Shown one piece after another: positions 1-53,706 of a stretch of DNA of 64,000 nt (positions within the stretch are counted from its first letter, which is position 1; each line of letters starts with the position of its first letter). Made by a program: the position numbers and the translations under genes. Below the pieces are notes generated by a model. It was not told the DNA's origin. It worked only from the letters and a program-made list of their open reading frames with translations, and searched no databases. This DNA is from a virus (lineage: Duplodnaviria > Heunggongvirae > Uroviricota > Caudoviricetes), in the IMG/VR virus record IMGVR_UViG_3300028591_000001, positions 115,547-179,546 of that record. The stretch is one strand, 5' to 3'.

Positions 1-3000
1 CTTATCCATTTTCTAATATATCAACTAAAGAGATTTCTTCCAAAAGAAATTCTAAGTCTAATTGAATTCCACATTCTAATTTATCTATTATTCCCAAATA
101 CTCACATATTATTTTTTCTTTAAGTTCATCAATATTGTTAGTAATAGGGAATAATTCCTAAAGCTTTATCCCATAAGAACCTAAATTAATATTTTTTATA
201 GGAAATTCAAATGGTTCCTAAATTGGGTTACAACCACATCTATTCATTTGCAACCACATCCACTAGATTTATATTTTTTGTTGCAATCATTCTATAAATT
301 GTTACATAGTCCATTACATCCTGTAATTCTTTCCAGAAGTCTTTCTGCTTCCTCATATTGGTCAATTTCTATCATATATTTTATGACATTTAATGCGGAC
401 CATAATAAATCTCTTTTATAAATTAATTCTTTATCTATTATAGATTTATTACAATTTATAGATGCAGCCTAATCAAATATCTAATAGCAAACATTAATAT
501 AACATTTTCGTAGTCTGCAAGTTTGAAAATAGTAATCATAAGTAATTTCCAAATTAGAAACATTTGGATTCATTTCCAAAAGAGTAGCAAGATCTACTTC
601 ATTATAAAAATGATAAAATTTTCCATTTTTATAATAATATTCTTGATTTTCGTCTTTTGAAAGTTTTAATGTTACTAAAGTATAAAATCCATCCATTCCT
701 AAACCAAAAGAAGGAGTTTCTTTTTCATTAGTTCTAATAAAGACATTACTTGTTACTCCAGTGGTTTGATTTAATTGTAATACATATATATAGGCATACT
801 CATTATTATAGTCTTCCTATATAATTGTATTACAATTTTTATCATAAGTTATTTTATTATTGCAGTTCATACGTTTTTAACTTCATCATTATAAGGGTTT
901 CCATCATATAACTACATAAACTCAATTTCAGTACGTTTAGAATCATTTTCAGCTTGAGATTCTTTAAATGTTCTGTCTGTCTTATTCTTATAATCATCAA
1001 GCTAGAATTGCATTTGATTCTTTTCTCTTTCTATCTGAAGTTTAGCTTCATTAAGAGATTCAATTTTGCTTTGAGCTTGTTGAAGTTGTTGTTGAGCTTG
1101 TTGTAGATTATTCTACAATTCTTCAACCTACTATGTAAGTTGCTGTATCTAATTATTTTCTTCTTTCTATTTCTTAATAGATTTTTTAACCATCGCTTTC
1201 ATTTCAGTTAAACTTTTAGCAGTCATAATATCCATAAGAATATCAGCAGAAACAATTCCTCCTTTTATAAATTCAGGAACAACTGCTCTTATTTGTTCCA
1301 TTTCCTTCAGTATTTCTGAAGAAGTAATTATATGTATATCGAAATCAGTAACTGTAAAGTATTTAGGAAGAGCAGTAAATATTTTCTATAATTTATTTCC
1401 TAATATTAATGTTCCTGTTAATCCATCTTTGTAAACTATTTTAGCACAATTTAAAGAATCCAATAAGATTTCTCTTGTTATTAAATCCATTTGATAATGC
1501 CATTGCTTGGTTACTATAAATGAATTATTAATTCCAGTTTGAACATTAGTTACTGCATCTCTCTATTGTATTCCATTTAATCTTTCTCTAAATACTCCAG
1601 TAATTGAAGATGTTGTCTATTCTACAGAGTCAATAGCTAATTGAATAGCTTGGACAGCCTATACTTTAATAGTATCATCAAATCCATTAAATATAGTAGT
1701 TAATGGTGCTTGTCCAGTATTTACTTGACCTTCTTGAGAAGTATCAATTAATGCTAATCCTTGTTTTTTATAGGCTTTCCATTTCATTAATCTTTCAGAT
1801 AAATCTTCTCCAAGAATTGCAGGAAGAGTTGGAAGGTTTACAAAATCTCCAACAGAACCGGATTGAGCTATTAAATTATCTCTATAGAAGTGCAAAAGGT
1901 CATAACGATCTTGAAGAACCATACATTTTTGAACCATAGAAAATGGTTCTCCTCCTCTATTATTAAACCATACCCCATTAACACTAAGAGTAGCTTTATT
2001 AGGAGCATCTTTAGTTCTTATTAAATCTTTATCTAATCCTTTTAAAACATATATTTCTGATCCAATTCTTACTGTAGAATATCTCTATTCAATAAAATTT
2101 TTATCAGTTTCTATCCATTCAACTTCATATACAGGAATTAAATCCTTATTATACCAATGTTGTTCTGGATATCCTGGAGTAACTTCTTCCCCAGCTCTTA
2201 TTCCATCTGTTGCAGGAGTTCCATCCTAATTATAACTTCTTATAAAATAAGAACCAGTAGTTTCTAAAGCGTCTGTCCACATTTCTTCAATTTTGGCAAG
2301 ATCGTTTTTAGATAAATCTTTACCATATTTACTAAGAATCTAATTTCTAGTTAAATATGTTCTAACTACAACTCTGTATGATTCATTAATATATGGAGAG
2401 TCATAGTTTAAGTCTGGAAACACATTAAGTGGATTTAAACAATCAATGTGTATATTTTTACCAGAAGAAGAAGGAAGAACTCTATAAAAAGTGAATCCAG
2501 AAACTAATAAATCTATAAATAACTACTTTAATTTAGTTACCAGATCAACATTTCTAGACTAAATGATATATTCAATAACATTCTGTCCAGCTATTTCATA
2601 TTCAGAAATAAAGTTTTCATTAATATCTTCTACTAATTTGTCTAACTATTCTTTTATATTTAGATCCTACATATCTTTGCTTCCAAGTATTCGTAAGAGA
2701 TTATTTTTGAGATTTGTTTGTAGGAGTTTGGTACATTCGGAAGCTATCTAAAGTTGTTTTTCTCTAAATATGTTATTAATAGTCGCAGTATCTTTACAAG
2801 AAACCTTTGGTAAAATTGGAACATCTAAATATTCTCCTACTAATGCATCAATATGTTTCCTGATTAAAGGAATAAACTCAACCGCTGTTGGCTACCCAAT
2901 ACCAAAGTTTTCTTCTAAGTATTTAAACTATTCCTTATCTCGTTTACAATTATAATAATTATAAGCTTTCTTTATAGCTGTTTTTTCCTAAACAAGTTCG

Positions 3001-3010
3001 GCAATAGCTA
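1..3010 (-). other. Late-gene block on the minus strand. Standard-code ORFs (e.g. 481-696, 1659-1937) are fragments of longer reading frames interrupted by in-frame TAG. Products unresolved.
   Basis: Adjacent same-frame ORFs separated only by TAG (rc CTA at 1659-1661 and 481-483). No TAA or TGA between fragments. Confidence 0.4.
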
Positions 3011-3012
3011 AA

Positions 3013-3309
3013 TCAGTTTTGCTAACAAGTTCTTCTTTCTTCATCTTCTGGATAAATTTTAACTCCTCTAAAGAATTTTACTCTATGTAATTGTCTAGAG
3101 ACGAGTTCTTGTTCAACAAATTTTAAAAAATCTTCTGCATTTAAATCTGCAGACATTTGTATTACGGGCTTATCTAAATTATCAAAGTCTAATTCAACTT
3201 TAAAACCTGTCCCGCCCTTCCCTAATTTAGTCACTCTAACATGTCCAGTATATTTACATTTGTATTTACACTCAATCATATTAGTAATGGCTTCTTCCAT
3301 TTCATTCAT
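3013..3309 (-). CDS. Small late protein, about 99 aa, with one recoded TAG
   Basis: ORF 3022-3309 reads through TAG at 3022-3024 to TGA at 3013-3015. ATGA overlap with the upstream gene. Confidence 0.4.
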
Positions 3310-5585
3310 CTATATCTAGGATTACTTGTTATATTCATTCCTGGAATATATCCAGTATTTATTTCTCCTTTAACTTCAAATTTATTTTGAGTAGGAATTA
3401 TTCCGTATCTCTTAACTCCTTTTTCATCAAAATAATAACCAATATCTCTAAGTCCTTGTCCAACAGGCTTATATTCTCTTGGAATAACATCATTTAATTC
3501 TTCATCTCCAACTTCAGCCATTTGACAGGCAGCTACCATATCAAATTTTCCTTTATTTTCGTCAGTATAAAGATTTAACTATTCTAAAAATTCTATAAAC
3601 CAAATATTATGACAGTAATCTTCTACATAGGAAGCAACTAAGTCAGTACCATGTTCAATCATAGCTGTAGTAGCTGTGGTACCATACTAGTTATTATTTC
3701 TTCTTCTTTCATCTCCTCCATAACAAGCTCTAGGACGTCTCATAAAGAAATGTGCGAATTTATTATCGCGAGCATAAGTTAAAACAGATAAACGAGTAGC
3801 TTCTATATTTGCTTTTGCCTGATAATACCATAACATTGCCATTGTTTGCTTGTAAGCATCTCTAATATCATCTGGTCTATCAAGATAATAAGCTACATAA
3901 GTTGGCTCCTTCATTCCATGTACTCTTCTTTTTATCATTGTACAGAATTTAGAAGGATCTCTGGTTTGAACAGAGGTTTCTGCCTAACCAATATCAATAC
4001 CGTCTATTCCAGCAACATATAGATTTTGTATTATGGGACTACCATCTTCCCATAAAGGATGCTCTAATATTCTAACTGGACCATTTGGATTAGGTTTAAA
4101 TCTAACTCCAGTGATATTCTCCCTTTTTCTTTCAGGTCCAGAATAAATAAATTCCATATATCCTCTCTAAATAGGAGGAGCCTATTTTTTAATTCTAATA
4201 GAAATTATTTGTTCAGCTATTTTAAGTTTATTAAATTTATTTACACCTTCAGCTGCAAAAGCTTCTTCTGCTGTAAAACATTGCTCCGCCTTATGCTCAA
4301 GAAGTGTCTGTGGATCAGTAATTTCTGCTCTTCTCTATTCATAATATTCTCTTTGTTTTTTCATCAAGTATTCGCCTCGACTTCCAACAAACTTAGAGTT
4401 ATTCATTGATATATAAGCAGGAATAAAGTAAGCAGTTTCTACCCAATCCCCATCTTCTGTATAATTATGTTTAAAAGGCAGAACCTAGAACATTTTAGGA
4501 TTATAATATACTTTTCTAAGTCCTTCAAGGTTTGGACCCGCGTCACCTCCCGTTCCTACTGCTGCAATAATTCCAATTTTATTACCACCAACAGTAACAA
4601 GTTCTTCAGCTTTTATGAATGATCTCTCTAAGATAGGATTAGAACCAGACTCTTCAAGAAATAAGAAACCTACACGGTCACCACGCATCTTTCTATCTTT
4701 GTCCACAACTATGCCTTCTATTTGAGACATAAAACCTGTTTCAATCTTTTGTCCATTTACTACTTTATAATGAGAAGCTCTTTTCTTAGTAGCAGTATTA
4801 ATTACCTATCTAAGTTTAAGCATTCCTCCCTAGGTATTATCATCAGTAAATGTTATTCCAGCATTTATCTTATCAAGAGTTTTCTTAACATAATTATCAT
4901 CAAATGCTGTGAGCAAACATATACTATTTTTAAAACAATTAAAAAAGTTATCAAATATAGAAGCATGTATTTCAGAAAATCCACAACCACGGTTTTTCAT
5001 TACTGTCATATTCTTCCTTAACTTTCTACATAATTCAAAATAGTGGAAGAATTCGTATTGATAAACAAAGAAACGAGGAAATATAATAGAACGACTATCA
5101 CCTGCAACATCTTGTTCTGTATTAGGTAATTGATAGTAGTTAAGAAAATAATAGTTAAATCCAGTAATAGTATAACCATTAACTGTCATTCCTTCCTTGC
5201 ATCTTCTATATTCTTCATTCCAGAAATCTCTATAAAGTTTAGAACCAGGGTAGTAAGAACAATATTGTTCAGTTTTTAAAAATGTTTCACGAGCTTCAGT
5301 AAACCAAGAAGGATCAAAGTCTAATCCTTCTGTTTCTGTTATTGGTTTATATCCAGTTAATTCATAAGAAAGTCTTTTATCAAAGTAAGGTACTGGATCG
5401 TCTATTTTAACATCCCATTCACCTTCTCGATGTTCTATAGTAGTCTCTGGTTTAATTTCTTCTATTTGCTGTTGAAGTTCTTCTTGTTTCTATTTAACCT
5501 CTTCAACTATAGATTTGACTTCCTCAGGAATTTCTGGTATAGGATTCTTACGTGGACGGCCTCTTTTCTTTTTAACCTCTTCCAT
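3306..5585 (-). CDS. Large late protein, about 760 aa, with at least 8 recoded TAG codons. Possibly the terminase large subunit: C-terminal DxD...E...D pattern, N-terminal KRGRPRK.
   Basis: ORFs 4830-5189, 4485-4730, 3687-3938 and 3306-3539 share one frame and are joined only by TAG. ATG at 5583-5585 (MEEVKKKRGRPRK). Motifs VAGIDGIDIG, SYVEDY and GKFDMVAA suggest an RNase H-like nuclease, but no Walker A was recognised. Confidence 0.4.
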
Positions 5586-5589
5586 TAAT

Positions 5590-7800
5590 CAGGCATAAAT
5601 CCTTCAACAGCTCCACCACGTATTTGACTTTGCTCCATAACTTCTTTCTTAACAAGAGATTCGATTTGTTTAAGAGTTTCAATCTAATCAGCAGCTTCTT
5701 TCATTGAAGCTTGAACATCTTTAACTTTAATAAGGTATTTACCCTATTCATCTTGTTCTTGTAAGTCTACATTATGAAAATAGTCTATAATCTTATCAGT
5801 TACTTCCTAAGCAGCTTGAAGTAATCTAACATATCTATTGGAATCCTATAGTGCTACATACTTTCTACAAGCAGCACGAAATTCTGGATTATTCCATTCT
5901 TCCTCAGTAATATGAGCATCTTTTAGAGCGGCTTCATGTCTTTCCTAATTACTATAATTAGCATAAGGTGATTTCCAATCAATTGCTAAATATATATAAG
6001 TAAATTCTCTATCAGCTCTAATATGGTCTAATCCTGAAGGATCTTCTTTACATTTATTTCTAGAAGGTTCTAGTAATTTTTTAAATTCATCAATTAAAAC
6101 TAAATCAGCAGTTACTAATTGTGCCCTTCCAGTTTTCTAATTATAATCCCATATATTCATATTTACATTAACATTTTATAAATTAATTAATATTTATTAG
6201 TGGTTCTTTTAAATCCAGCAGTTTTAGATGTAGCATCATCAAATTTCTAGAAAATCCCTGTTCCCATATTTGGACGAGTCTAATCTAAACTTTTTACTCG
6301 TAAAGGAGTATATTCTACTCCAGGAAGTCTTCTTCTAATTGTACTAATCATAGATCCCGCACTACCAGGAGTAATGTTTCCTATTGTGCCTAAATAGTGG
6401 TCCGGATTACTTGCAATAACTTTTAATACCATTTCTCTTTCACTGTTAGGAAGCTTATCTAAAACATTATTCATATTTAATCTAGAAGCTTTTGTCATTT
6501 TATAACCATCATATATTTCCTAGTAATTAGGAATATTTGGAACTTGTTCTAATTTTTTTAATCCTGGAGTTCCTCCTCTAGCTGTCCCATTTGCTCGTCT
6601 TGTTGCAGCACTTTTTTGTCCTGCTATCATTCTTGCTTTTGCAATTTCTGCAGTTTTTGCAGCTTTCTATGCTTTCATAGCTTTAACCATTTGTAAAGCT
6701 TCCAAAGCATTTTTAGCTTTTACAGGTCCAGGGGCAGTTCCAGTCTAAGTATAAGGATTATTAGTAGTTCTACTTTTTTCTTCAATAAAATTATAAAGAT
6801 CTGTTAAAGGAAAGTTTGAATAATTTCCTGCTCCTTGAGGAACAGGATTATAATAATATTCTCCATTTATTCCTCTACCATTTATTCCTCCCTTTATAGT
6901 ACCTTCTTGATAAAAGGGATTCCGTTTAAACTACCTCCCTATAAATGTTTCTTAAGTTTAGAACCACATCTAGCTTTTTTAAATTCTGCTACAACTCCTC
7001 CTTGTTCTTTTTTTATCTTAGCTCCACATTTATGTTGAGGAGTTCCTTCACCTTTTCCTTGTCTAGCATCTTGTTGATTCTTTTTAGTTTTATCAATTTC
7101 TGCTTGAGTCATTTTACGATGTTTTCCAAGTTTTGGATCGTATGTTGTATTAGCTTCTGGGTCAACTTTAGCTTTAGCTTCTTCAATTTTTTGTTTAGCT
7201 CTATTTTTAAATCTTTCAACTGCAGAGCCTAATCCAGCTTTTGTTACTTGGCCTCCTTCTTCTTTTTTCTTGCAACCACAACCTACTAAACCACCTTTCT
7301 TATAATAAACCACTTCCTCGTCTTCAGCACATTGATTCTTTAAAGATTTGAAATAATTTAGTTTAGCACCATGAAGAGCTTTCTATTTTTGTTCTGAAGT
7401 CTATTCTTCTTGTTGAGTCTATTTTTTTCCTAGAACTTCATTAGTTTTTCTTTGAATATACTTTTCTCCACCTTGTGTCTAAACAAATTGTGCTAATTCT
7501 TTCTAATCTTTTGGATTTCTTTTATATTTATTCTAGAAATCTTTTACAATAGAAGATACTACTTTTTTCTATTTATCATCCATAGTTAATCAATTAAGAT
7601 TAAATCTTTTGTAGAGAATACTGCTTCCTGTAAAAAGCCATTCTCTGTAAACCATCTCACCTTTACTCCTTTAAGTAAAGGGTTTTTATCTTCATTTCTA
7701 ATTATAGAGCGTTCTACTCTATATACCAACATAATAGGTTTATTTGGTATGTCCTGGCGTAGAGTTACTCTCTACCCAGGAACAAAATAAATCTTTTCAT
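5590..7800 (-). other. Further late genes on the minus strand, TAG-recoded, including ORF 6280-6498 and the Lys-rich ORF 6939-7313. Boundaries unresolved.
   Basis: Continuous minus-strand reading frames broken only by TAG. 6939-7313 is a very basic K-rich protein. Confidence 0.35.
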
Positions 7801-7806
7801 CCATCA

Positions 7807-8397
7807 TTATTTATTTTTAATATTCTTGAATCTTTCAGTAAGATTTTCATTAACAACTGCAAGAACTCTGTTTTCGCATACAAGTTGTAAGTTCTGTTTA
7901 TAGAAAGGAACAGGTACTGCAGAATTTTTAGTAAAGAAAATAGTATCGTTAGGTTGACACCATTTTACTTCTGGACCAACTTCTTGAATAACTCCTACTT
8001 TAATAAATTGTTCTTCTTCTTCAATTTGACCATTATCAGTATTTTTATACTGAGGAGCCATACCTCCCATATCAAGAATAAGACCAGACTTAGAATCACG
8101 AACAATTCTTTGGAAAGGATTATCTTCAAATTGTTTTACAAGAACATAATTGCCGATAGGCATTATTTCTATATTGGCCATATTTTCATTTACTTTCTTA
8201 GCAAACTCCTCTACATTAGTAAATTGTTTATCAATTTTTTCTGTAAATTTGTCTACTTCTTCGTTAAATTTTTTAACATTACGTTGTTCAATAACGTCCT
8301 CTGCTGTAGTTCCATCTAAAGTCATTACTCTACTTGTACTTTCTCCTGCTACATGCATAGCAATTTTTTCATTCTCACTTAAAATTGGATGTTCCAT
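7807..8397 (-). CDS. GroES-like co-chaperonin (Cpn10 or T4 gp31-like) with an N-terminal extension
   Basis: C-terminal half MPIGNYVLVK...SGLIL...GVIQEVGPEV...GDTIFF...LAVVNE matches the GroES signature pattern. Uninterrupted 196-aa ORF. Confidence 0.5.
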   Translation of the reverse strand: MEHPILSENEKIAMHVAGESTSRVMTLDGTTAEDVIEQRNVKKFNEEVDKFTEKIDKQFTNVEEFAKKVNENMANIEIMPIGNYVLVKQFEDNPFQRIVRDSKSGLILDMGGMAPQYKNTDNGQIEEEEQFIKVGVIQEVGPEVKWCQPNDTIFFTKNSAVPVPFYKQNLQLVCENRVLAVVNENLTERFKNIKNK

Positions 8398-8398
8398 A

Positions 8399-8620
8399 TT
8401 ACCATTTATTCATTAAACATTTTTCAGATTCAATGCTTGCTTTACTTTTTAATATACAACCGCATTGATCACATATATGTGAACTCATATACTTTATATT
8501 ATGTTCACAAGTTTTACATATATCTAATCTTCTTTTTTGTTCATCTGAAGTATAACCAGTTAAATTTCTCCAGTTACCTACTATTATATTTCGTAATTTA
8601 AGAAAGAGATTCTTTAACAT
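8399..8620 (-). CDS. Small zinc-ribbon protein (CxxC...CxxC)
   Basis: 73-aa ORF carrying CKTCEH...CDQCGC. Confidence 0.4.
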   Translation of the reverse strand: MLKNLFLKLRNIIVGNWRNLTGYTSDEQKRRLDICKTCEHNIKYMSSHICDQCGCILKSKASIESEKCLMNKW

Positions 8621-8897
8621 CTTTGTAGTATCTTAGATATTCTTTATACTATCTTTCATCTAGATAGTAAATAACTCCATCTATTTCTACTTTTTTTAGC
8701 ATTACCATTTTCCAGCAACACAATGATTATTTAAGTTTCTCATCTTTATGAGAATGTGACAACCACAACCTCTGATAAATCCGGGTTTTGCAAAAGAGGA
8801 AACTTCATTAGTATCTGGATTTAACCAAAGTTTTGGATTACATAATCCCATAGCAGGACTAAAAATAGGACAATTCTTACAAATGTCTCTACGTTCA

Positions 8898-9809
8898 TCA
8901 ATATTCTATTCGTGCATATTTAGCTTTTTGTTTTTCTAATTTGTTTTGTTTAGCATAATGTTTTAACATCTTTTCTACATCCTCTTTTAAATAAGAACAA
9001 TGATATAAAGTATTTTTTCCAGAATGATCATAATGATTTAAAATTAAATCTTTTATAATGAAATCAGAATTTAATTTTTGAAGCATCCACGCATAAGTTG
9101 ATAATTGTAATTGATAGTGATTAAAATTACATTCATCTAAATGTCCTAAAGGATATTTCATTTTATCGGTACAACGATTTGCATTATTGTAAAATCCTTT
9201 TAAATCTATTTTAGCATTAGTTTTATGGTCTATGATATAAATATCATTTCCATTTTTTACTATAAGGTCTATTTGTCCTGCCAAGTGTAAATCAATTTTA
9301 GGATTATCATAATATATAAGGTACTCAGGATATATTCCATAGTCTAAGTTAAGATCAGTATAATCTTTTTTACATTCAAATTTTCCTCCAATACCAAACT
9401 TCTTTAAAGTAATATTAGAACCAGCATTATAAAAAGAATTTTCTAACTGTGCATGAATTTTAGTTCCTCTTTCACAAGCAATTCTATTTGTTTCTGCCCA
9501 TTCATCAAGAATATCTTGTTGAACTTTATTTAGATTTTCTTGAGATATATTATATACCTCTAAAAAATCTTTTGGTATTTTATGGTTTTTCCAAATACCT
9601 CCTTTTTCTTTTTTCCAGTCTTCTGGAGACATTATTCTTTCTAAAGCTTTATAAGCACTTACAAATTCCTTATCAAATTCTTTTCCATACCTTTCTATTA
9701 AAGTAGTTACAGAGATATATTTGATAGTAGGATCATTTAAATTTCCGTAGTAATGGTCAGCTTCTCTAAATCCTACTGAACCATTAATTTTATCATATCC
9801 CATTTTCAT
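8898..9809 (-). CDS. PD-(D/E)XK family nuclease (RecB or Cas4-like fold)
   Basis: 303-aa ORF with GQIDLIV...IYIIDHKT (D...D-x-K) and several Cys residues. No TAG. Confidence 0.55.
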   Translation of the reverse strand: MKMGYDKINGSVGFREADHYYGNLNDPTIKYISVTTLIERYGKEFDKEFVSAYKALERIMSPEDWKKEKGGIWKNHKIPKDFLEVYNISQENLNKVQQDILDEWAETNRIACERGTKIHAQLENSFYNAGSNITLKKFGIGGKFECKKDYTDLNLDYGIYPEYLIYYDNPKIDLHLAGQIDLIVKNGNDIYIIDHKTNAKIDLKGFYNNANRCTDKMKYPLGHLDECNFNHYQLQLSTYAWMLQKLNSDFIIKDLILNHYDHSGKNTLYHCSYLKEDVEKMLKHYAKQNKLEKQKAKYARIEY

Positions 9810-9832
9810 ATAACATATATTTTTTATTTAAT

Positions 9833-10441
9833 TTAAGAATTATCTTTTATATACTATAATATACCTTCTACATGAAGTCTTACAATTGCATGAAATCCTT
9901 CATCACTAAGTAAATAATCTACATCTTTTTTATTATCCTAAAAAAAGTTTTCTGTTAATACTGCAGGACAATTCGTATTTTTTAATACATATAAATGAGC
10001 TTCTTTATCTGGATCTCCATCTGACAAATCAATTCTCATTTTTTTATCCTTTAGATTAAGTTTTGCTGCATTATATAAACAGGTTGCAAGTTTATCAGCT
10101 TTTGTTTTTCCTACTGATGTATAAACTTCCCAACCTGTTGCATCATGCCACTTTCCATCAGAAGCGGCGGCATTTACATGTATTGAAACATATATACAAT
10201 TCTTATATTGTTTCACTAATTCATTAACAATTTTACATCTTAATTGTAATTCTTTAGATTGAGATACTTTTAAATCATCATCTTCTATATCAATAAATAC
10301 TTGGTATCCCATATCTTTAAGAATATCTCTTACAGCCTTACACACTTCTCTAGAATATTTATATTCTTTAAATCTTCCATCAGGAGAACCTTTCCCTAAG
10401 ATGCTTTTCTAATGAGCTGTGCCAAGAAAAATTGTAATCAT
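9833..10441 (-). CDS. N-acetylmuramoyl-L-alanine amidase (Amidase_3) endolysin with 3 recoded TAG codons
   Basis: MITIFLGTAH[TAG]KSILGKGSPDG...SIHVNAA...GWEVYT... ATG at 10439-10441. Reads through TAG at 10409-10411, 9938-9940 and 9854-9856 to TAA at 9833-9835. Confidence 0.75.
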
Positions 10442-11184
10442 TTGCATATTTTATCGTAGTCAAGAAGTAATGCTAATTTTTGAATATGAGGAAGAATATC
10501 TCCAGCATATTTATAATCATAACTTTTAGGTTCTTTATAAAAAAGAATAATTAAACCTATTTGAGAAGCATGTCCTTCGATAGTAAAAAAAGAAACAGAT
10601 TTTGCATTACTAGCTTTTACTAATCTATAAAGTTTTGGGAGAGAGTATCCCATGTCTTCTACATCCTCAAATTTAACAAAACTTTGACTGTGTATTTTAG
10701 ATAATTCATCTGCATAGTATATATAATCTAACTTATTCCACTACTATTGAAGAGTAGGAGTATCTAATGATCTTGGAGCTTCTGTGAGACAAGATAAATA
10801 CAAATATTTATAACCTTGTAAACTTTGAGTATTATTATGATAATTCAAAAGTAATACATCAAAAGCATCCCTATCTACTTCTGCTATCAGCTGGACCTAC
10901 TGATTTATTTCAATAGCAGTTTCCATAGAATATTGTTCAGCCTTTTTATTACTTACAATTTCCTACTCAAACCGTTCTGTCATTATTCTTCCAGTTTCTC
11001 CAGTTATCTGAGAATACAAAACCCATCCAAACAAAAGAACAATAATTAAAGTCTTCGTTTCTGGACGAATTCTATCAAGTACTCTCCACAAATACTTAAT
11101 CCAATTTAAATTCATTTTTTTGTTAATTATAAAATAAAAATATTTGTATTTACTCAAAGTTATTAGTATATTTAGTAATGTCAA
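10438..11184 (-). CDS. Lysis-associated membrane protein (holin or spanin candidate), TAG-recoded
   Basis: N-terminal TM segment LIIVLLFGWVLYSQI. ORFs 10963-11184 and 10438-10653 are in one frame joined by TAGs. Lies immediately upstream of the amidase. Confidence 0.4.
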
Positions 11185-11286
11185 AATAATTAATATTTAA
11201 AAATATAAAAATTGAATTTTTGAATAAGATATTTACTTTTAATTTAACACTTTATATAAAATATGAATAAAAAATAGATTAGAAAG

Positions 11287-12261
11287 ATGTAGACTGCTAG
11301 TGGAGGTCCACTTCAATTAACTCCAGAAGAACAAAAGTATTTAGAATGGAGTAAAATGACTCCAAAATAGCAATAGACTTATAGAATAAATAGAGCTAAA
11401 GCTTATTTTAATGATGGACAATTATGGAATGCAGCAAAATCTTATTTTGGAGGATTTGATCCTAGAAATCCACATTTAATTACTGGAGAGGCTCCTAGTC
11501 CAGGAATGAGAAATCCTAAGTAGATAATACAAGGAGTTTAGAAAGCTAAATCTATAGCTTAGAGAGCTGCTAAAATTTCTGATAAAGTGTTTGATAGACA
11601 ATATTGGAGGGCAATAAGTAGTGGAAATCCTAAGAGAGTTTAGGCTGTAAGAAGTTTACATTTTAGTGCTAAAGCTCCTGAAACAAAAGTTGTTGATATT
11701 AAAGGAAGACCTCAATTGGTAATTCATAAAACACCTAATTATTTTATAAAATTTGATAATAATAGAAGTTATGGAAAAGTAAATTGGTTTGCAACAAAAA
11801 ATGCTTTTGAAGGAGAAGAAGGAGTATTTGCAACTGGTGCTGGACGTAATCCGAGAGAAATGAAATTATATGTTAATATAAAAAATCCCCACATTCCAAC
11901 TTTAGATGAAGGGGTAGAACCTGCATATATAAATGAAGGAGAAGATGGAATTTTAGCAATTGTAGACAATAACTATACTAATTATTTTCCTTCTACGTCA
12001 AAAGCAGGAAAAGGATTTAGAATATCCGGGGGAGTAAATAATCCTTATGCGTTAAAATCCTATAATTCTATAACTTATGATAATAATGGAAATATTATTC
12101 CTATTTCTTAGAGAGATAATTTTTTAATTAATGATATAAGATATAAACAAGGAGGTAAAATGAATATATTAGAATTTTTAAAGAATGGAAGTAGAATCCA
12201 TATTAAAGAAAAGAACAAGGGTAAATATTTTAAATCAATTAATAAATATGTAAATGTATGA
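11287..12261 (+). CDS. Late protein of about 324 aa with 6 recoded TAG codons (the first is codon 2). Ends at TGA.
   Basis: Frame traced by hand from ATG 11287 through TAG at 11290, 11368, 11374, 11521, 11539, 11560, 11641 and 12109 to TGA at 12259. Confidence 0.5.
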
Positions 12262-13010
12262 TGGAAGAAAAATTAACAAAGGAAGAGTTACAAGAATTAG
12301 GAAGTTCTTTTAATTCAAAATTAGGAATGGATATGTTTAAGAAAATAGATGGAGTTGTTTATAAATTATGTACTAAATGTCTTAAATATAAACCAATGAA
12401 TGAAGAATATTTTCCACATAGAAGTAATGTAAAATGTGGATTTGATTCTAGATGTAAGGAATGTTATAAAGAAAAAGAAAAAACTAGAGTTAGAGTCAAA
12501 CCATTTAACGAAGAAGGAGAATTATATTGTTTAAAATGTAAGTAGTATAAACCTTTATCTGAATTTTATCCAAATTCTAGTAATACTAAAAATAGAAATT
12601 ATTATTCTAATTATTGTAAATCTTGTGAATCTGAAAGAAGTAAAATAAAAAGAGAAAATTACCATTCTGATGATCCTATTTTATTTTTTAGAGATTTAGC
12701 AACTGCTTGTAGAGGTAGGGCTTATCGTAGTAATAAATTTAAATGTACAATTACTAAAGAAGATTTGTTAGATTTATATGAAAAACAAAATCATAAATGT
12801 GCATTATCTGGAATTGAAATGACTACAATAAAAGAAAAAGGAAGATTACCAAATAATGCTTCTGTTGATAGAATAAATCCTGGAAAAGATTATTCTATTG
12901 ATAATATAAGATTAGTATGCAATCATATAAATATGATGCGATCAGATTTATCAGATGAAGAACTTTTAAAATATTGTAAAGCTATTGTAGATTATGTTAA
13001 TAGAATTTAA
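12258..13010 (+). CDS. HNH homing endonuclease with one recoded TAG
   Basis: ORFs 12258-12545 and 12765-13010 are in one frame joined by TAG at 12544. Motif ASVDRINPGKDYSIDNIRLVCNHINMM (HNH_3-like) plus Cys-rich zinc fingers. Confidence 0.7.
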
Positions 13011-13011
13011 A

Positions 13012-13845
13012 AAAGGAAATAAAATATATATTAAACCTAAAAATCGCGGCAAATTTACAAAATACTGCCACGGTAAAGTAACAGATGAATGTATATAGAA
13101 AGGAAAAAATAGTTCTAATCCTGCTATTAGAAAGAGGGCTACGTTTGCAGCTAATGCTAGAAAGTGGAAACATGAATCAGGAGGATTATTAAAGTTTGAA
13201 GAAGGAGGTAAAAATGGAGCTCCTTCTACTAAGTTTTTATCTAAATAGTGGTTTAAAAAAGCTGGAAATACTATAAACAATATTGGAAATAATATAGGAG
13301 ATTTCCTAAAAACAGATACGGGAAAAGGTATAATGGATATTGGATAGAATATTCTTAGTGGATACACTAATTATAAAAAAGCTTCTAATTTATTAGATTC
13401 TCAAGTAGAACAAAGTAAAGCTTCCTTAGAATAGGCCTATTAGGATACAATATAGTAGGCTATATAGAATAGGGCTATTCAACAATAGTTGGTAAAGGAA
13501 TAGTGGAAACAAGCTTATTAGAATGGAGAAACTTTAGATAATTATAGTGATATTGTTGCTCAACATATAGGATGGAATTAGTATAGTTCCGCTTTATAGA
13601 ATGCCGAACAATAGAAAAGACAGCAAGAAGCATTAATGGATTAGCAAGCTAAATAGGCTAAAAGTAATGCTCTAGGAAATTTATTTGGAAGTGTTGTATA
13701 GTCAGGACTTGGAGTTTTAGGTAATGTATTAGGAAAAGGGGGAATATCAAGTACTCCTACTACAAGTACCTCTACTACTGCAACGAATAATACTTAGTTC
13801 AGTTCTCCTTTAAATGATTCAACAAAATTTTGGAGTATAAAATAA
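13012..13845 (+). CDS. TAG-rich reading frame (more than 15 TAG) with no in-frame ATG. Its N-terminus (KIYIKPKNRGKFTKY) duplicates the C-terminus of 11287-12261, so it may be the downstream half of a gene split by the HNH insertion.
   Basis: Frame 1 is open from 13012 to TAA at 13843-13845. Similarity IHIKEKNKGKYFKSI vs IYIKPKNRGKFTKYC. Confidence 0.35.
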
Positions 13846-13880
13846 ACCCCGGTAGGAAATTAATCCTATCGGGGTTTTAC
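13844..13880 (+). terminator. Rho-independent terminator
   Basis: AACCCCGGTAGGA aattaa TCCTATCGGGGTT followed by TTTAC. 13-bp stem with a G-U pair. Confidence 0.6.
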
Positions 13881-14044
13881 TTAAGAATATGAAAAAGAAT
13901 TATCTATCAATGTCAATTGATAGTCTATTAAGTTCATCTTTCCAATTGAGGTAGTAACCATTATCTAACATATTATGGTCTATAGATAATTGTTCTATTG
14001 CCTTAATCTCGTCTATATTTGCTTTATATAAATCTCTAAAAATT

Positions 14045-14389
14045 TCAGTTCTCATAATAAAGTGTCATTAAATACTCTTCTGTTATTTCCTTTACTCCAG
14101 TTTTAGTGGTGGGATTCCATATATGATTTTTAAAGAGTTCTCTCATTGTAGGACGAGATTCATTAACTTTAATATAGCATACTCTTCTAATATCATCTAT
14201 GTTAGAACGAACTATTACTTTTGTTACATCTTTCATACAATCTTCTAACTCATTGCTAGAAGATTTTTCTTTTTTAATAGGATTATCTATAATTTCTATA
14301 TCATCTATAGATAATTTCATTCTCTTTAATTTCTTCTCCAAATTTGGAGTAGTAATTATTGTTCCTTTATATTTAAATGTCACTTCCAT
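14045..14389 (-). CDS. Hypothetical protein of about 115 aa
   Basis: ORF 14045-14464 trimmed to the internal Met, because its first 25 codons are the translation of the suppressor tRNA gene. Confidence 0.45.
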   Translation of the reverse strand: MEVTFKYKGTIITTPNLEKKLKRMKLSIDDIEIIDNPIKKEKSSSNELEDCMKDVTKVIVRSNIDDIRRVCYIKVNESRPTMRELFKNHIWNPTTKTGVKEITEEYLMTLYYEN

Positions 14390-14391
14390 AG

Positions 14392-14463
14392 TTGTCCCAC
14401 TAGGATTCGAACCCAGGCTAAAGGATTTAGAGTCCCCTGTACTGACCGTTATACTATAGGACA
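14392..14463 (-). tRNA. Suppressor tRNA with anticodon CUA (reads UAG), probably Gln-derived
   Basis: Cloverleaf: acceptor UGUCCUA/UGGGACA (U1-A72), D GUAU-AACGGUCA-GUAC, anticodon stem GGGGA/UCCUU, loop CUCUAAA (U33, C34-U35-A36, A37), T-arm CUGGG-UUCGAAU-CCUAG, discriminator A. Resembles the phage tRNA-Gln(UUG) at 34623. Confidence 0.8.
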
Positions 14464-14473
14464 ATCTGCTGTT

Positions 14474-14839
14474 TTAAACCAGCAGTTTTTTGAATGCTTT
14501 AATCTTACGATTAGCAATTTCTTTGGTTTTAGCCTTTACTCTTTCAATTACTTTCTTATAGTCTTTAGAGTTATAAAGAGCTTGAATATCATTTAAACCC
14601 TCTCTTTCAGCAAGTTCTTCAAGAACTTCGCTAAACAAAGAATCATCTACTTGTTTTAACCAGTTCTCAAATTCTTTTTTATCTTCATTTTCTAAAAGTT
14701 GTACTTTAATAGTTAAAGTATTTCCTTCTTTCGTAGAATCTATTACAAAATGAGTATCATCGTCTTGATATTCTTGATGTAATTCGTCGAGTCCCATTAG
14801 CTCTGCTACGAGAGCTTTTAATAATTCTTCTTGTTTCAT
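14474..14839 (-). CDS. Hypothetical acidic protein, 121 aa
   Basis: ORF track. Standard code. Confidence 0.5.
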   Translation of the reverse strand: MKQEELLKALVAELMGLDELHQEYQDDDTHFVIDSTKEGNTLTIKVQLLENEDKKEFENWLKQVDDSLFSEVLEELAEREGLNDIQALYNSKDYKKVIERVKAKTKEIANRKIKAFKKLLV

Positions 14840-14892
14840 AACAATACTAATATATCTGCTATTTTATATAGACAAATTTAAAAAATGTTAAA

Positions 14893-15627
14893 TCAAGATT
14901 CTTCTTCTAAAAATTCTTCTAAGCTATTGATATTGAATTTCTTTTTAAGAACTTTTTCTATTAACTTAATATCATTAGTATTATTTTCTACTTTATTCTC
15001 AGTATTTCTTAACCTTTCTTCATGATTTCCTAAAATAAATACAATAGCCTGTTCTATTTTACTCAAATGGAATATTTTTTCTTTTATAGGCAATCCTGTT
15101 TCTGAATCTCTTTGTGATAAAGTATTAATGTTTAATATCTGTTTTGCTTGAAGAGCATTGTCTAATCTAGAAACAGTTGAAGGAGAAATATTTAGTCTTT
15201 TTGATAACTCTATATTATTATAGGTAATAATTCCATCTTGTGTATCTTCTTTTTTAAACATATACTGTTGGGTAGCTAATATGTAGGCTTTCTCTTTAAA
15301 AGAAAGTTTTTTGTTATCTAAAAAATCATATGAAAAAGGTTCAAATTTATCCCATTTCAAAAATCTATATAATTTACCTCTACCTTTAGGAGTTACTTCT
15401 ATATATTTAGCATTTATTAAATTTTGAATACTAGTTCTTACAGTATTTATGGATGCTCCGCTTTCCCTAGAAATAGTATCAAGAGAAGGATAACAGGTTT
15501 TTGTTTCTTTATCCATATGTCTTTTTATTGTAGCATAAATAAGAATATCCCCAGGTTTTAAGTAAATGTTTTGTTCCGTCATATCATTTGGAACCTGCAC
15601 GTGTTGTTTATTTAATTCATTTTCCAT
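14893..15627 (-). CDS. HTH DNA-binding protein (two winged-helix-like segments). Candidate replication initiator or early regulator.
   Basis: 244-aa ORF with YPSLDTISRESGASINTVRTSIQNL and LSKRLNISPSTVSRLDNAL. Lies next to the iteron array. Confidence 0.5.
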   Translation of the reverse strand: MENELNKQHVQVPNDMTEQNIYLKPGDILIYATIKRHMDKETKTCYPSLDTISRESGASINTVRTSIQNLINAKYIEVTPKGRGKLYRFLKWDKFEPFSYDFLDNKKLSFKEKAYILATQQYMFKKEDTQDGIITYNNIELSKRLNISPSTVSRLDNALQAKQILNINTLSQRDSETGLPIKEKIFHLSKIEQAIVFILGNHEERLRNTENKVENNTNDIKLIEKVLKKKFNINSLEEFLEEES

Positions 15628-21944: not shown

Positions 21945-21949
21945 TTTAG

Positions 21950-22470
21950 TCAGGTAGCTCAGATAATATAAGAGCGTTCCCAGGATGGTGAAAGGTCGTT
22001 GGTGTAAATCCAACTCTGGCTACTTTAGGGAATAGTTTAAATGTTAGAACACTGATAGCCTAAGGAAGTACTTAGCAAGTAGGATTAGCTGATCCAACTT
22101 TTTTAGGAGAATACTATCAATAGAATGCAGGTACAAACTGCTTCCCTATTAATACCTTCCATCCTAGGTGAAGTGATGGTGACACATAGAGTGACGACCT
22201 ATGTAATATCCTAATGTCAACTTTTAGTTAGTACTGGCTAAAGGAATAGTCGATTTAGTGCTCTGGGTTTTCGACTATAAGTGAGTAACTAAGAGAAAAA
22301 CCAATTTCTTCTAGATGGAATTGGAGGGGTAAATGTTACGAGCAAAGGACGCTTTATTACCCCAATTTGGATAAGTAGCTCTAATTGGTTCCGACGATAT
22401 ATCGTTCCTTACTTCCGTCGGTTAGAGCCCTGGATTTTACTAGGAGGTTAGAGGTTCGATTCCACTCCTA
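21950..22470 (+). other. Cluster of tRNA-like or structured RNA elements (T-arm and D-arm-like hairpins, nested inverted repeats) that I cannot fold into canonical cloverleaves
   Basis: Contains GCTC-loop-GAGC D-like arms, GTTGG-TGTAAAT-CCAAC, GGGGTAA...TTACCCC, GCTCTAA...TTAGAGC nested hairpins and AGAGG-TTCGATT-CCACT. Confidence 0.3.
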
Positions 22471-22556
22471 TTTACATAAATTCTATAATTGGATATTAAA
22501 AATGTAGTAGAATTTTTAACTAAAGATTATAGGTGTTCTAGGTAGCTCCTAGAATA

Positions 22557-22649
22557 AGCAGGTTGGTGTAATGGTCAACGTTAGTTGGTAGCTACTAATA
22601 CAACATATTCCTAAAAGGAATGATAAAGGTTCGAATCCTTTGCCTGCTG
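22557..22649 (+). tRNA. tRNA-like (93 nt) with good acceptor and T-arm, an extra ~20 nt, and no identifiable anticodon
   Basis: Acceptor AGCAGGT/GCCTGCT, T AAAGG-TTCGAAT-CCTTT. Interior carries TGGTAGCTACT. Confidence 0.35.
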
Positions 22650-22713
22650 CAAATTTAATTTTGATTTTTCATAAATTAAAATAAATTAAAAAATAAAAAT
22701 AATTTTTAATGTT

Positions 22714-24264
22714 ATGAAAATAATTCCAAAATTACAAACAGCATGGCAGCCATTATAGGTTGATAATACTAGAGTACAAAAACCTATGGTTATGTAGCCT
22801 ATAAAAAGAACTTTAAAACCTGGAGAAATGTTGTTAAATTTAGGAGGACAACAAACAGTAGTGACTCCAAAACAAACATATATTCAATAGGATAATCGTT
22901 CAGATAAATAGAGAAAATCAGATTAGAAATATGCTTAGCAGAAAAGAAAATAGATTGAATTAGATAAAGCATAGAAAAGAACTGGAGAAGTTGCTAGTGC
23001 TTTTTTAGAAAGAACAATGCCTTCTTATTGGGCTTAGTAGTTAACTAATGAATCTCTTAATCCAATATAGTAGTTTTTAATTGATGGATTTAGTCCAGGA
23101 AAAGTTATTAAAGGGGGATTAACTACTGCTGCTATATTAACAGCTCCAATTAGAGGACTTTCAAAAACAAAATTTGGAACTCATATTGTAGAAGAAGGAG
23201 GAAAAAAATTAATAGCAGAAAGGGTTCATCCTGAATGGTTTAGTGGAATATCTCCAGAATTATAGAAAGAAGCTGAAACATTTTTAAAAGAAGGATTAAC
23301 TAAAAGACCAATATTATATGAAGAAGTTAAAAATAATCCAGAATTAATGTAGTTTGTTAAAGATATTGCAGAAGGTAAAAATTAGGAAATTTTAGCAAGA
23401 TTTAATGAAACAAAAGTTGCTCCGAATTTAGGTTCTCTTATAGCACTAAAACAAACTGGATTACCTCAAACTAAACACGTAGTAATAGGTCAAAAAGGAC
23501 ATTCTCCAATTATAGGAGATTGGCATAATACAAAAAATATGGGTAATTATAATTATTTTGCTGGAGGAGAAAATGCTAAATGGGCAGCTGCTTAGTATGC
23601 TGATGTTGGCACCTTTGAACAAGCACATAATTTATTGATTAGTAGAGGTTTTACTCCTGGTTCTAAGTAGTATGAAACAGCTATGGAAGAATTTTCTAAA
23701 ATAATGGATATGCAAAAAGCTAAAGGAGTAAAAAGATTTGCTTATAAAGAGGGTGCTAAAGATAGAAGTGGAGGAGCTAAAAACTTTAGTTGGGAACATT
23801 TGATTACTAAAGGTCCCACAAAAAAGAAAATAGAATGGACTCCAGAAGAAAGAGATAACTATCTAGATGCATTAAAAAATTGGACAAATTTCTGGGGAAA
23901 AGATATAGAAAGTGGAGGTTCTAGACAAGTGATTGCTAGAGCTGATAGTCCTTTAGGATTTGCTACAATAGAAGCTAATGGAAGAAATTATAAGGAATTA
24001 GGAGGTTCTTATATAGAAATGCCTGGAATTTCTAGGCCAAATAAAATTGATGTTAATACTGATGCAAATAAATTAGGAAAGTAGTTAGAAAAATTAAAAA
24101 TTCCATTATTTAGAGTATCAGAAGTTGATGATCCAATAAGAATTAATACTCACGGTTCCTACGGATTACCAAGTACTAACACATGGTTTTTTCAACATAA
24201 AAAAGGAGGAAAATTAAATGAAAATAACAGAAGAAATGCGTTGGGTATGTTTAAAAGGATATGA
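22714..24264 (+). CDS. Late-type protein of about 516 aa with at least 15 recoded TAG codons. Function unknown.
   Basis: ATG 22714, frame traced through many TAG, including the one at 24082-24084, to TGA 24262-24264. ORF 23683-24084 is an internal fragment. Confidence 0.5.
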
Positions 24265-24359: not shown

Positions 24360-24929
24360 ATGGATATGAAGAATGGACAGATAATTGTGAAGAACAAGAA
24401 GTGTAAAGTTGAGAATATTCTTAAAGAATATCCAAATGCTGAAATTTTTGATGTGACCAGTAAAGGAGAATATAAAACTTTATCTCCTTTCTATCCACAT
24501 AATTCTATTCCTGTTCCATTTTCTGGTTCAGTAACTTCTCAATCTGTTGAAGGAATTTGGCAAGGTCTTAAAGTATTTGAACGTGAAGGAATAGACTTTT
24601 CTTGTTTTAATAATAAAACAATGAAAAATCTTAAAAGAACTGTTAAAACTCACGGTAGATGTCTTGGACATCAAAAAGGTTTAGGTTCTAAAGAACTTCT
24701 CGGATATATTGATGCGAGAAAAAATATTTATATTCCTTCTTATATGTGGATGCTCGAAAACAAATGTCAAAAAGAAATTGCATACTTTAAAAGTCTACTC
24801 AAAGAAGGAAAAATAATAGTTTTTCTGGACTATGATACAAATGAGAATGTAGAGGATGCTTTAAAACCTTTATCTCATGCATCTTTAATTAAAAAATATT
24901 TATTAAATGAAATACGAACAACAAATTGA
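24360..24929 (+). CDS. Hypothetical protein, 189 aa
   Basis: ORF track. Confidence 0.5.
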   Translation: MDMKNGQIIVKNKKCKVENILKEYPNAEIFDVTSKGEYKTLSPFYPHNSIPVPFSGSVTSQSVEGIWQGLKVFEREGIDFSCFNNKTMKNLKRTVKTHGRCLGHQKGLGSKELLGYIDARKNIYIPSYMWMLENKCQKEIAYFKSLLKEGKIIVFLDYDTNENVEDALKPLSHASLIKKYLLNEIRTTN

Positions 24930-29764: not shown

Positions 29765-29995
29765 CTAATCCAAACTATAACAATATTATTGACGTTCTTG
29801 ACATATGAATTGAAAGCAAACGTAGGTGCTTTAATTGCATTGGTAAACGTTAGGATAAATCAAGACCTAATACTAAGGAAGAAATTGTTATTTCTGTACA
29901 GAGTTTGGATTAAATTGCCAGGGTAACTCAATAAATTGATTTTAGTAATTTTATTAGTTACTTACAATACTATAGTTTTCAAAAAGGTTAGAGTA

Positions 29996-30045
29996 TTTGA
30001 TTGAAATTCAAAGAGTTGTTGGTTCGATTTCAACTCCGCCCACCA
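29996..30045 (+). pseudogene. tRNA-Phe(GAA)-like 3-prime portion (anticodon arm, T-arm, acceptor 3-prime strand, encoded CCA). No matching 5-prime acceptor or D-arm was found.
   Basis: TTTGA-TTGAAAT-TCAAA, T GTTGG-TTCGATT-TCAAC, TCCGCCC A CCA. Preceded by a closed module hairpin ending TACAAT at 29964-29969. Confidence 0.35.
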
Positions 30046-30127
30046 AATAAGTCGTGAGACTTTATGTCATTGTAATAAATGACCATACGCAGAAGTTTTA
30101 AATGACAGTCCGAAAAGACGGACACTT

Positions 30128-30263
30128 GAGGGGTTCGTCTAGTGGTTTAGGACACAGAAAAATATAAAATTTTACTAGTATCAGGCTGATACTTACTATA
30201 TCACAATTAAATTGAATATAGCAATCCAAGCCTGGAACAGAGGTTCGATTCCTTTACCCCTCA
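30128..30263 (+). ncRNA. tRNA-like RNA (136 nt) with perfect acceptor, D-arm and T-arm, and an 85-nt insert containing the module hairpin GTATCAG-G-CTGATACT-TACTAT in place of the anticodon arm
   Basis: Acceptor GAGGGGT/ACCCCTC, D GTCT-AGTGGTTTA-GGAC, T AGAGG-TTCGATT-CCTTT. Confidence 0.45.
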
Positions 30264-30266
30264 CTA

Positions 30267-30465: not shown

Positions 30466-30496
30466 CATTATAGAATATTAAATAAATTTAAACAAT

Positions 30497-48741: not shown

Positions 48742-48767
48742 CCACATTAAAAACTGAAAAAATTCAA

Positions 48768-53621: not shown

Positions 53622-53626
53622 CACAT

Positions 53627-53701: not shown

Positions 53702-53706
53702 CTTAT

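Follow-up and report, generated by a model that had tools for sequence, protein, structure and literature searches.

Two readings of the TAG codon, used gene by gene, in a large crAss-like phage

We analysed a stretch of 64,000 nucleotides (nt; hereafter the window, GC content 30.7%) from a phage of the Caudoviricetes, positions 115,547 to 179,546 of IMG/VR record IMGVR_UViG_3300028591_000001. A first reading of its letters (the original prediction) had claimed that the stop codon TAG is recoded in late, lysis, and homing-endonuclease genes, and we confirmed this recoding by coding density, profile matches, a suppressor tRNA with anticodon CUA, and the alternation of TAG with CAA and CAG among relatives. 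The best overall explanation, to which we assign a probability of roughly 0.85, is that two readings of the codon are used gene by gene, by way of a CUA suppressor tRNA encoded by the phage itself.

Open reading frames (ORFs) were called with TAA and TGA as the sole stops and compared against calls under translation table 11. Reading TAG as sense raised the coding coverage of positions 1-13845 from 47.7% to 95.1% and that of the whole window from 58% to 78%; within 1-13845, the median ORF grew from 75 to 208 amino acids (aa) and the longest from 303 to 759 aa. Table 11 cut the large terminase subunit (TerL) into 11 pieces and the portal protein into 23; full-length homologues of TerL measure 750-785 aa. 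This comparison of codes had been proposed as a check on the recoding, and the TAG-sense proteins were indeed much longer and more homologous. A second check, the search of read-through proteins against protein families, gave matches that span TAG codons in TerL, the portal protein (residues 4-381 and 314-701), the amidase, and the GIY-YIG, HNH, and PDDEXK_5 endonucleases. As TAG lies inside conserved domains, it does not fall between separately conserved short genes, the arrangement that had been named as speaking against recoding. All the ORFs listed in the original prediction as continuous through TAG stood up (TerL, the amidase, 11263-12261, 22714-24264, both GIY-YIG genes, and two HNH genes), apart from 47416-50204, which is interrupted by a TAA at 48739.

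The neighbours of TerL and the portal gene behave likewise. Orthologues of the four genes at 5585-7807, the first of which matches phrog_16390, swap TAG with CAA, and orthologues of 244-870 in recoded relatives also contain TAG. In the lysis cassette (9833-11115), where the putative membrane protein may have a role in lysis, the orthologues keep TAG. Where orthologues align to the TAG-bearing genes (up to 75 loci), no TAA or TGA stands in frame; a single in-frame TAA was met in a relative, in a 34%-identity match to 14893-15627. Thus TAG is a sense codon in the TAG-bearing genes, and TAA and TGA stay terminators, as had been claimed.

The amino acid was read from codon substitutions. Among TerL relatives with at least 92% protein identity, the codons opposite any TAG of the group were CAA 48 times, CAG 3 times, and others 9 times, so that 51 of the 60 non-TAG codons specify glutamine (Gln). 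For the portal protein and three further genes, orthologues of at least 80% identity had TAG 95, CAA 47, CAG 7, and others 12 times opposite the TAGs of the window (Gln in 54 of 66 non-TAG codons); the portal protein alone contributed TAG 68, CAA 36, CAG 5, and others 9. Pooled over these close relatives, CAA or CAG accounted for 105 of 126 non-TAG codons (83%), and judged by these substitutions TAG therefore stands for glutamine. Seven more distant standard-code relatives, with no TAG in TerL, had Gln in 15.8% of the TAG columns versus a background of 3.3%, a fivefold difference. At some variable columns, TAG was aligned with E, K, or D.

Not all genes of the window take part. Among ORFs of at least 90 aa, 19 are TAG-bearing and 49 are without internal TAG. 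The former hold 128 in-frame TAGs in 5,300 codons and the latter 0 in 7,538 internal codons, which bears out the claim that the early blocks lack internal TAG. Counted against CAA plus CAG, TAG differs between the two sets with p = 3e-45 (Fisher test), while off-frame TAG rates are alike (2.8% in TAG-bearing and 2.2% in TAG-free genes). TAG makes up about 43% of the glutamine-type codons in the TAG-bearing genes, versus 0 internal TAG beside 283 Gln codons in the TAG-free genes. Two of the 19 ORFs are probably not genuine, 33817-34227 and 53588-53911, of which the second overlaps tRNA genes; since the two contain only 5 of the 128 TAGs, the contrast is independent of them.

This partition is real, conserved in relatives, and drawn between individual genes, not between modules. 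The packaging and lysis block contains an island of three adjacent TAG-free genes, with matches to phrog_3188 and phrog_298, which encode a GroES-like protein, a zinc-ribbon protein, and a PD-(D/E)XK nuclease. For island genes with 11 and 10 Gln codons, the absence of TAG has a probability of 0.002 and 0.004, given the TAG share of late genes. At 61-65 related loci, island orthologues had 1 TAG versus 438 Gln codons and 5 versus 788, in contrast to portal and TerL orthologues with 463 TAGs versus 2,716 Gln codons and 286 versus 1,594. The reverse occurs on the plus strand, where 22714-24264, 47416-48741, and 48982-49239 are isolated TAG-rich genes within TAG-free blocks. The dual reading of the original prediction therefore stands, but its module-by-module layout does not, given that 7807-8397, 8399-8620, and 8898-9809 are TAG-free within 1-13845. 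A 365-aa early protein showed 0 TAG versus 239 Gln codons in relatives that are only distant and paralogue-like and whose phages may use either code. Enrichment of TAG near gene starts, as expected of a gatekeeper, was not significant, with a combined p = 0.05 under a uniform model and no effect when conditioned on Gln-like positions. The CAG:CAA ratio is 18:152 in TAG-bearing versus 77:206 in TAG-free genes, and CAG is also rarer in recoded TerLs; we do not claim that TAG has replaced CAG, as GC content and two atypical genes rich in CAG act as confounders.

In some TAG-free genes, TAG is a terminator. Six genes in the block of small genes at 37923-46284 end at TAG, and in five of them the next in-frame TAA or TGA follows 2-3 codons on. 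After the TAG at 44866, the ATG of the next gene lies 4 nt on and an in-frame TAG-TAA pair 11-12 codons on. All eight TAGs of genes without internal TAG sit in the last 12 codons, several of them 2-4 nt from the ATG of the next gene, as with real terminators. A TAA or TGA follows within three codons after six of the eight terminal TAGs, which is suggestive of backup stops; a further in-frame stop occurs at this distance in 21% of control genes terminated by TAA or TGA. Relative L131 shows the same pattern of TAG terminators with a close second stop, and TAG at a gene end followed by a close second stop has been reported for Zeta crAss-like phages (PMC12386605). As TAG-free genes use TAG as a stop, the wording that early genes use the standard code is justified, and to describe them merely as TAG-free would be incomplete.

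The suppressor tRNA is encoded on the strand of the lysis and packaging genes. A TAG-rich island on the plus strand (11263-13845) separates it from the lysis genes. Syntenic CUA tRNAs occur in relatives L001, L004, L006, and L007 as well as in the much more distant L038 and L064, on the TerL strand and about 6-9 kb upstream of TerL. Within the window, it lies between two genes for small proteins and downstream of the gene for the HTH/DnaD-like protein, rather than in a code-change module of the Jade type. Orthologues of the two small genes are without TAG in relatives, and those of the HTH gene are TAG-free in five of six. A scan for sigma-70 promoters and terminators around the operon was uninformative at the AT content of the window.

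Endonuclease genes extend the recoding beyond the packaging and lysis genes. Five of the six free-standing ones (two GIY-YIG, two HNH, and one PDDEXK_5) carry 1-2 TAGs within conserved domains. These five belong to three families and are located within tRNA arrays or close to them. Rfam gave no intron family in the window.

We envisage the following course of events. The suppressor tRNA would be made from an operon that is itself TAG-free and would be charged with glutamine, most likely by the host glutaminyl-tRNA synthetase. UAG would then be read as glutamine, probably in competition with host release factor 1. Only after charging would full-length products of the packaging and lysis genes, of several orphans, and of most free-standing homing-endonuclease genes appear. 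Genes needed before the tRNA builds up (the small early-type genes, the HTH/replication protein, the GroES-like protein, and the PD-(D/E)XK nuclease) would hold no internal TAG, and the partition could thus serve as a translational timer. Where TAG-free genes end at TAG, the nearby second stop would limit read-through once the suppressor is active.

A bolder version, which we advance only tentatively and consider rather doubtful, is that TAG acts as a translational gate for each gene, independent of transcription units and kept over deep divergence; this would be finer than the module-level picture in the literature. Packaging and lysis genes, orphan genes amid early genes, and the five endonucleases would then be held back. 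The TAG-free island in the late block (GroES-like protein, nuclease) would be translated beforehand, and TAG-ended early genes would be guarded by their backup stops.

Several observations weigh against the best overall explanation. TerL proteins of at least 92% identity differ in their number of TAGs, from 3 to 13, and TAG positions turn over fast, which fits near-neutral synonymous use as well as regulation. Preferential recoding of the lysis genes was not seen: TAG makes up 3 of 8 Gln-like codons in the amidase and 4 of 14 in the membrane protein, versus 43% in the pool. The claim that homing endonucleases are recoded, which held for five of them and includes the single TAG of the PD-(D/E)XK gene at 52623-53345, fails for the HNH gene at 57174-57746, which has no TAG. 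Also without TAG is 49407-50204, although it shares a C-terminal tail motif with four TAG-rich proteins. When every ORF of 300 aa or more in the window was scanned, none matched a release factor or a glutaminyl-tRNA synthetase. The closest sequence to the suppressor in the window is a 90-nt tRNA at 34834-34923 (79%), not tRNA-Gln(UUG), and among the suppressors of relatives only the L064 version is closest to tRNA-Gln. The amino-acid identity of the tRNA thus rests on codon substitutions, its own sequence being not clearly tRNA-Gln-like, and the early or late timing of the genes is deduced from gene content.

Of the competing explanations, the one that survives best also takes TAG as glutamine but does without a timer. 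The suppressor would be active throughout, and TAG would accumulate by AT-biased drift (CAG to TAG) where occasional termination is tolerated, being eliminated from genes in which expression must be high or accurate, or absent from recent standard-code acquisitions. The poor conservation of TAG positions, most evident in TerL, agrees with this, as do the rarity of CAG in TAG-bearing genes, the lack of TAG enrichment near gene starts and in lysis genes, and an SPFH gene of 40% GC that looks recently acquired. However, the difference in CAG is partly due to two atypical genes, and the same genes (GroES-like protein, PDDEXK nuclease, tRNA operon) stay TAG-free across deeply diverged recoded relatives. 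Placement of the tRNA in a TAG-free operon is a precondition for its expression before TAG is readable, and the TAG-terminated genes with backup stops show that TAG is still a stop for one set of genes. On balance, we consider drift without a timer improbable.

Even less probable in our view is that the endonuclease genes are selfish genes in decay, whose TAGs are inactivating nonsense mutations. Homing-endonuclease genes often decay, and the 1-2 TAGs per gene are far below the numbers in structural genes, with none at all in one HNH gene. However, all eight in-frame stops in the five ORFs are TAG, without any TAA, TGA, or frameshift, though at 31% GC a TAA or TGA would arise by accident more readily. 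On either side of each TAG, the domain matches and the ORFs (144-250 aa) have their full length, and a recoded intron endonuclease in an early gene has been published for TGA-recoded Agate phages (bioRxiv 10.1101/2021.08.26.457843).

We give hardly any credence to a whole genome or host on code 15, with TAG-free genes being so by chance or codon bias: these genes are compatible with either code, but they have 0 internal TAG among 283 Gln codons versus a 43% share elsewhere, their TAGs stand only at gene ends and abut the next start codon, and such phages have been placed in standard-code hosts (bioRxiv 10.1101/2021.08.26.457843). Just as implausible is that TAG encodes pyrrolysine or some other amino acid, or that the interrupted ORFs are pseudogenes or assembly errors, as the ARAGORN label "Pyl" and the E, K, or D opposite TAG at some variable columns might suggest: the label reflects the anticodon only, no pyl families (pylS, pylBCD) occur among the scanned ORFs, TAG alternates with CAA and CAG (83% of the non-TAG codons opposite it in close relatives), and the same interrupted genes, with TAG only in frame, recur in dozens of independent contigs.

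To place the phage, we compared its TerL with phage records using tblastn. Among the 135 matches were terminases with 25-29% identity from named crAss-like phages (cr50_1, cr55_1, and others), unclassified gut phage records at 46-48%, and records of Azobacteroides phage ProJPt-Bp1 and Flavobacterium phages. Megablast of positions 1-14000 against GenBank phages gave no DNA match, so that GenBank relatives exist at the protein level only; IMG/VR relatives reach a TerL identity of 96% on contigs of 163-192 kb, and judged by relatives the full genome would measure about 175 kb. TerL and the portal protein are homologous to crAss-like counterparts (phrog_6681 and phrog_6547), and a PD-(D/E)XK nuclease lies inside the structural and packaging block, as described for crAss-like phages (PMC7886860). 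Judged by these homologies, the window comes from a crAss-like phage with a large genome. Three crAss-like signature genes, those for the giant RNA polymerase with a DxDxD motif, the major capsid protein, and IHF, are absent from the window. It contains 28 tRNA genes according to ARAGORN, 20 of which were confirmed by Rfam, plus three further tRNA-like Rfam hits. The Zeta group is characterized by large genomes (145-192 kb), numerous tRNAs, and a code that differs from one close lineage to the next (PMC7886860, PMC12386605), and from such shared traits the phage is a likely candidate member.

Likeness to crAss-like and Lak phages had been part of the original prediction, and both the TerL and portal homologies and the published descriptions agree with it (PMC7886860; bioRxiv 10.1101/2021.08.26.457843). 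TAG-recoded crAss-like phages have been described by Yutin et al. 2021 (PMC7886860) and Borges et al. (bioRxiv 10.1101/2021.08.26.457843), peptide-level support for code 15 in a pair of crAss-like phages by Peters et al. 2022 (PMC9523058), and block-wise dual coding in the Mgcod preprint (10.1101/2022.06.29.495998). The phage of the window shares with them TAG as glutamine, a phage suppressor tRNA, recoding mostly in structural and lysis genes, early and replication genes compatible with the standard code, and standard-code relatives at short distance (here L020-L029, with 0 TAG in TerL). It differs in that its lysis genes are not the most strongly recoded, single TAG-rich genes are scattered in TAG-free blocks, and a conserved TAG-free island lies in the packaging and lysis block.

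Zeta phages such as Lera (PMC12386605; group defined in PMC7886860) likewise combine large genomes and some 26-30 tRNA genes with a CTA suppressor tRNA, multiple homing endonucleases, TAG gene ends with a close second stop, and a code varying between close lineages. In Lera, TGA is recoded and the CTA suppressor is apparently unused, whereas the phage of the window makes heavy use of TAG as sense. Agate phages (bioRxiv 10.1101/2021.08.26.457843) also have an endonuclease gene with recoded stops among early genes, which should delay its product until the code switch. There, TGA (Trp) is recoded in an intron-borne gene; here, TAG is recoded in five free-standing genes of three families. For code-switching phages, a layout has been proposed in which the suppressor tRNA is set among standard-code genes and precedes the recoded ones (bioRxiv 10.1101/2021.08.26.457843). 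Both the Jade code change module and the Lak phages of that study have the tRNA in a standard-code stretch upstream of the lysis cassette and on the same strand, as here. Unlike in these, no release factor or aminoacyl-tRNA synthetase stands beside the tRNA in the window, and the plus-strand TAG-rich island comes between the tRNA and the lysis genes.

The arrangement is thus correct and well supported, but it is not novel, every element having been published for crAss-like and other gut phages. This applies to TAG as glutamine, the CUA suppressor, the restriction to structural and lysis genes, standard-code early genes, lineage-to-lineage code switching, a recoded homing endonuclease, and TAG with a backup stop (PMC7886860; bioRxiv 10.1101/2021.08.26.457843; PMC12386605; PMC9523058). 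The recoding in the window leaves current understanding unchanged and adds one more clear example of large crAss-like phages running two UAG readings in one genome. It matters for annotation: about half of 1-13845 would pass for non-coding under table 11, and because TerL and the portal gene are broken up, a gene catalogue of this phage must use a mixed code. With a suppressor tRNA, backup-stop genes, and TAG-gated endonucleases side by side, the window lends itself to testing dual-code gene callers and to experimental work on translational timing. Coordinates of the features are collected in Table 1.

Table 1 Features of the window, with strand and number of in-frame TAG codons
Feature	Position	Strand	In-frame TAG	Details
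Gene downstream of portal	2-259	-	2	
Gene downstream of portal	244-870	-	4	
Portal protein	867-3044	-	22	725 aa; phrog_6547 4e-50, also phrog_156
Large terminase subunit (TerL)	3306-5585	-	10	759 aa; phrog_6681 2e-68, residues 94-698
Gene upstream of TerL	5585-6160	-	6	
Gene upstream of TerL	6187-6690	-	4	
Gene upstream of TerL	6894-7583	-	8	
Gene upstream of TerL	7586-7807	-	1	
TAG-free island in packaging/lysis block	7807-9809	-	0	three adjacent genes
GroES-like protein	7807-8397	-	0	island member
Zinc-ribbon protein	8399-8620	-	0	island member
PD-(D/E)XK nuclease	8898-9809	-	0	PDDEXK_1 23.2 bits (cut-off 22); phrog_298
Amidase_3 endolysin	9833-10447	-	3	Amidase_3 5.5e-21, residues 6-197
Putative membrane protein of lysis cassette	10438-11115	-	4	N-terminal hydrophobic segment, read by eye as helix
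TAG-rich gene	11263-12261	+	9	weak ART-PolyVal match
HNH endonuclease	12258-13010	+	1	pairwise homologue alignment runs through TAG on both sides
Gln-rich protein	12994-13845	+	18	TAG = 64% of Gln-like codons; N-terminal 60 aa conserved in most relatives
TAG-free operon around suppressor tRNA	14045-15627	-	0	
Small gene flanking suppressor tRNA	14045-14389	-	0	
Suppressor tRNA	14391-14463	-		anticodon CUA, reads UAG; 73 nt; ARAGORN (label "Pyl"); Rfam tRNA model 61 bits, E = 9e-11
Small gene flanking suppressor tRNA	14474-14839	-	0	
HTH_36/DnaD_N-like protein	14893-15627	-	0	HTH_36 5e-17; PHROG replication-initiator/DnaD-like matches
Orphan inside TAG-free plus-strand block	22714-24264	+	18	516 aa
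GIY-YIG endonuclease in tRNA array	35219-35869	+	2	TAG inside catalytic domain; PF01541 1.2e-7
GIY-YIG endonuclease in tRNA array	37215-37853	+	2	TAG inside catalytic domain; PF01541 1.3e-13
Block of about 30 small genes	37923-46284	+	0 internal	six genes end at TAG: 38787, 39574, 41710, 44471, 44866, 45287
TAG-rich orphan	47416-48741	+	12	ends at TAA 48739-48741; no family match
TAG-rich short orphan	48982-49239	+	4	no family match
Separate gene, other frame than 47416-48741	49407-50204	+	0	265 aa
PD-(D/E)XK (PDDEXK_5) endonuclease	52623-53345	+	1	TAG at codon 12, inside domain; PF11645 2.2e-18, residues 9-117
HNH gene	57174-57746	+	0	HNH_3/HNH match
HNH gene	57919-58353	+	2	PF01844 at its cut-off

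Pfam, PHROG, and PDB sequence searches with the TAG-rich orphans were empty save for the weak ART-PolyVal match of 11263-12261; 22714-24264 was among those without any match. The matching region of close relatives L129-L131 contains no large TAG-rich ORF, a homologue of 22714-24264 itself not having been searched for there. Reading 47416-50204 as one gene joined through an intron was rejected: the frames differ, each part has its own C-terminal tail, and Rfam at gathering thresholds gave tRNAs only. The second part alone (49407-50204) has a homologue in L080, a different phage contig. There, a TAG-containing protein of 750 aa (L080:4486-6738) directly follows the terminase and portal genes, and its C-terminal third is 74% identical to 49407-50204. 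This relation points to domain shuffling among possibly virion-associated proteins. The TAG-rich orphans may be late-made virion-associated proteins, although the basis for this, the L080 homology of 49407-50204 and the ART-PolyVal match, is thin.

Five proteins, four of them TAG-rich (6894-7583, 11263-12261, 22714-24264, 47416-48741, and 49407-50204), share an aromatic or hydrophobic stretch with K-(K/Q/T)-G-G after it, in most cases 20-30 residues before the C-terminus (FQHKKGGKL, YFKTGGNILPS, NNKKGGILPS). It may represent a shared tail with a role in assembly, packaging, or processing.

An imperfect direct repeat flanks the HNH gene at 12258-13010 (within 12150-13105), and its copies encode (I/M)L.F.K.G..I.IK.KN.GK(Y/F), at the C-terminus of 11263-12261 and at the N-terminus of 12994-13845. 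In close relatives, the repeat motif is present once and this site lacks an HNH gene; distant standard-code relatives of the L021 type have a 38%-identical HNH gene beside the motif. This suggests that the HNH gene is a homing insertion with target duplication.

Three of the syntenic CUA tRNAs (L004:3945-4034, L038:2215-2304, L064:1177-1264; 88-90 nt) have a 16-nt insertion, CGTAGCCCTCTGAAGG, in the variable-arm region; the remainder aligns with the 73-nt version of the window. These nucleotides may form an extended variable arm or be a minor insertion. Unusual tRNA or tRNA-like genes in the window lie at 22557-22650, 33343-33456, 34834-34923, 36107-36194, 50852-50937, 51182-51271, and 52509-52602, being either long (86-114 nt), given an odd anticodon by ARAGORN, or found by Rfam only. 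Such genes may carry short insertions.

The junction TAGTTATGA was considered as an enriched motif and rejected as not significant (3 copies versus 1.3 expected, with 3 reached in 19 of 100 shuffles). In the more distant relatives L049-L060 and L065-L078, the TerL matches span 3.0-3.3 kb versus 2.2 kb elsewhere, and the tblastn E-values drop. The additional 1 kb or so suggests an insertion in the terminase gene (intron, intein, or endonuclease gene), as has been reported for large crAss-like phages. Two regions of more than 600 nt each, 21946-22556 and 29841-30496, are devoid of tRNAs and, whichever code is applied, of ORFs reaching 50 aa; regulatory regions or unannotated RNAs may lie there.

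Three further TAG-free genes stand out by composition or match. The SPFH/Band 7 gene at 31017-32996 (8e-25), whose GC content of 40% compares with 30.7% for the window, uses CAG in 27 of 44 Gln codons and looks like a recent acquisition from a host. The adjoining 611-aa orphan at 27584-29419 uses CAG in 13 of 30 Gln codons. Directly after the TAG-rich 22714-24264 lies 24360-24929, with a DUF6939 match at 2.9e-66.

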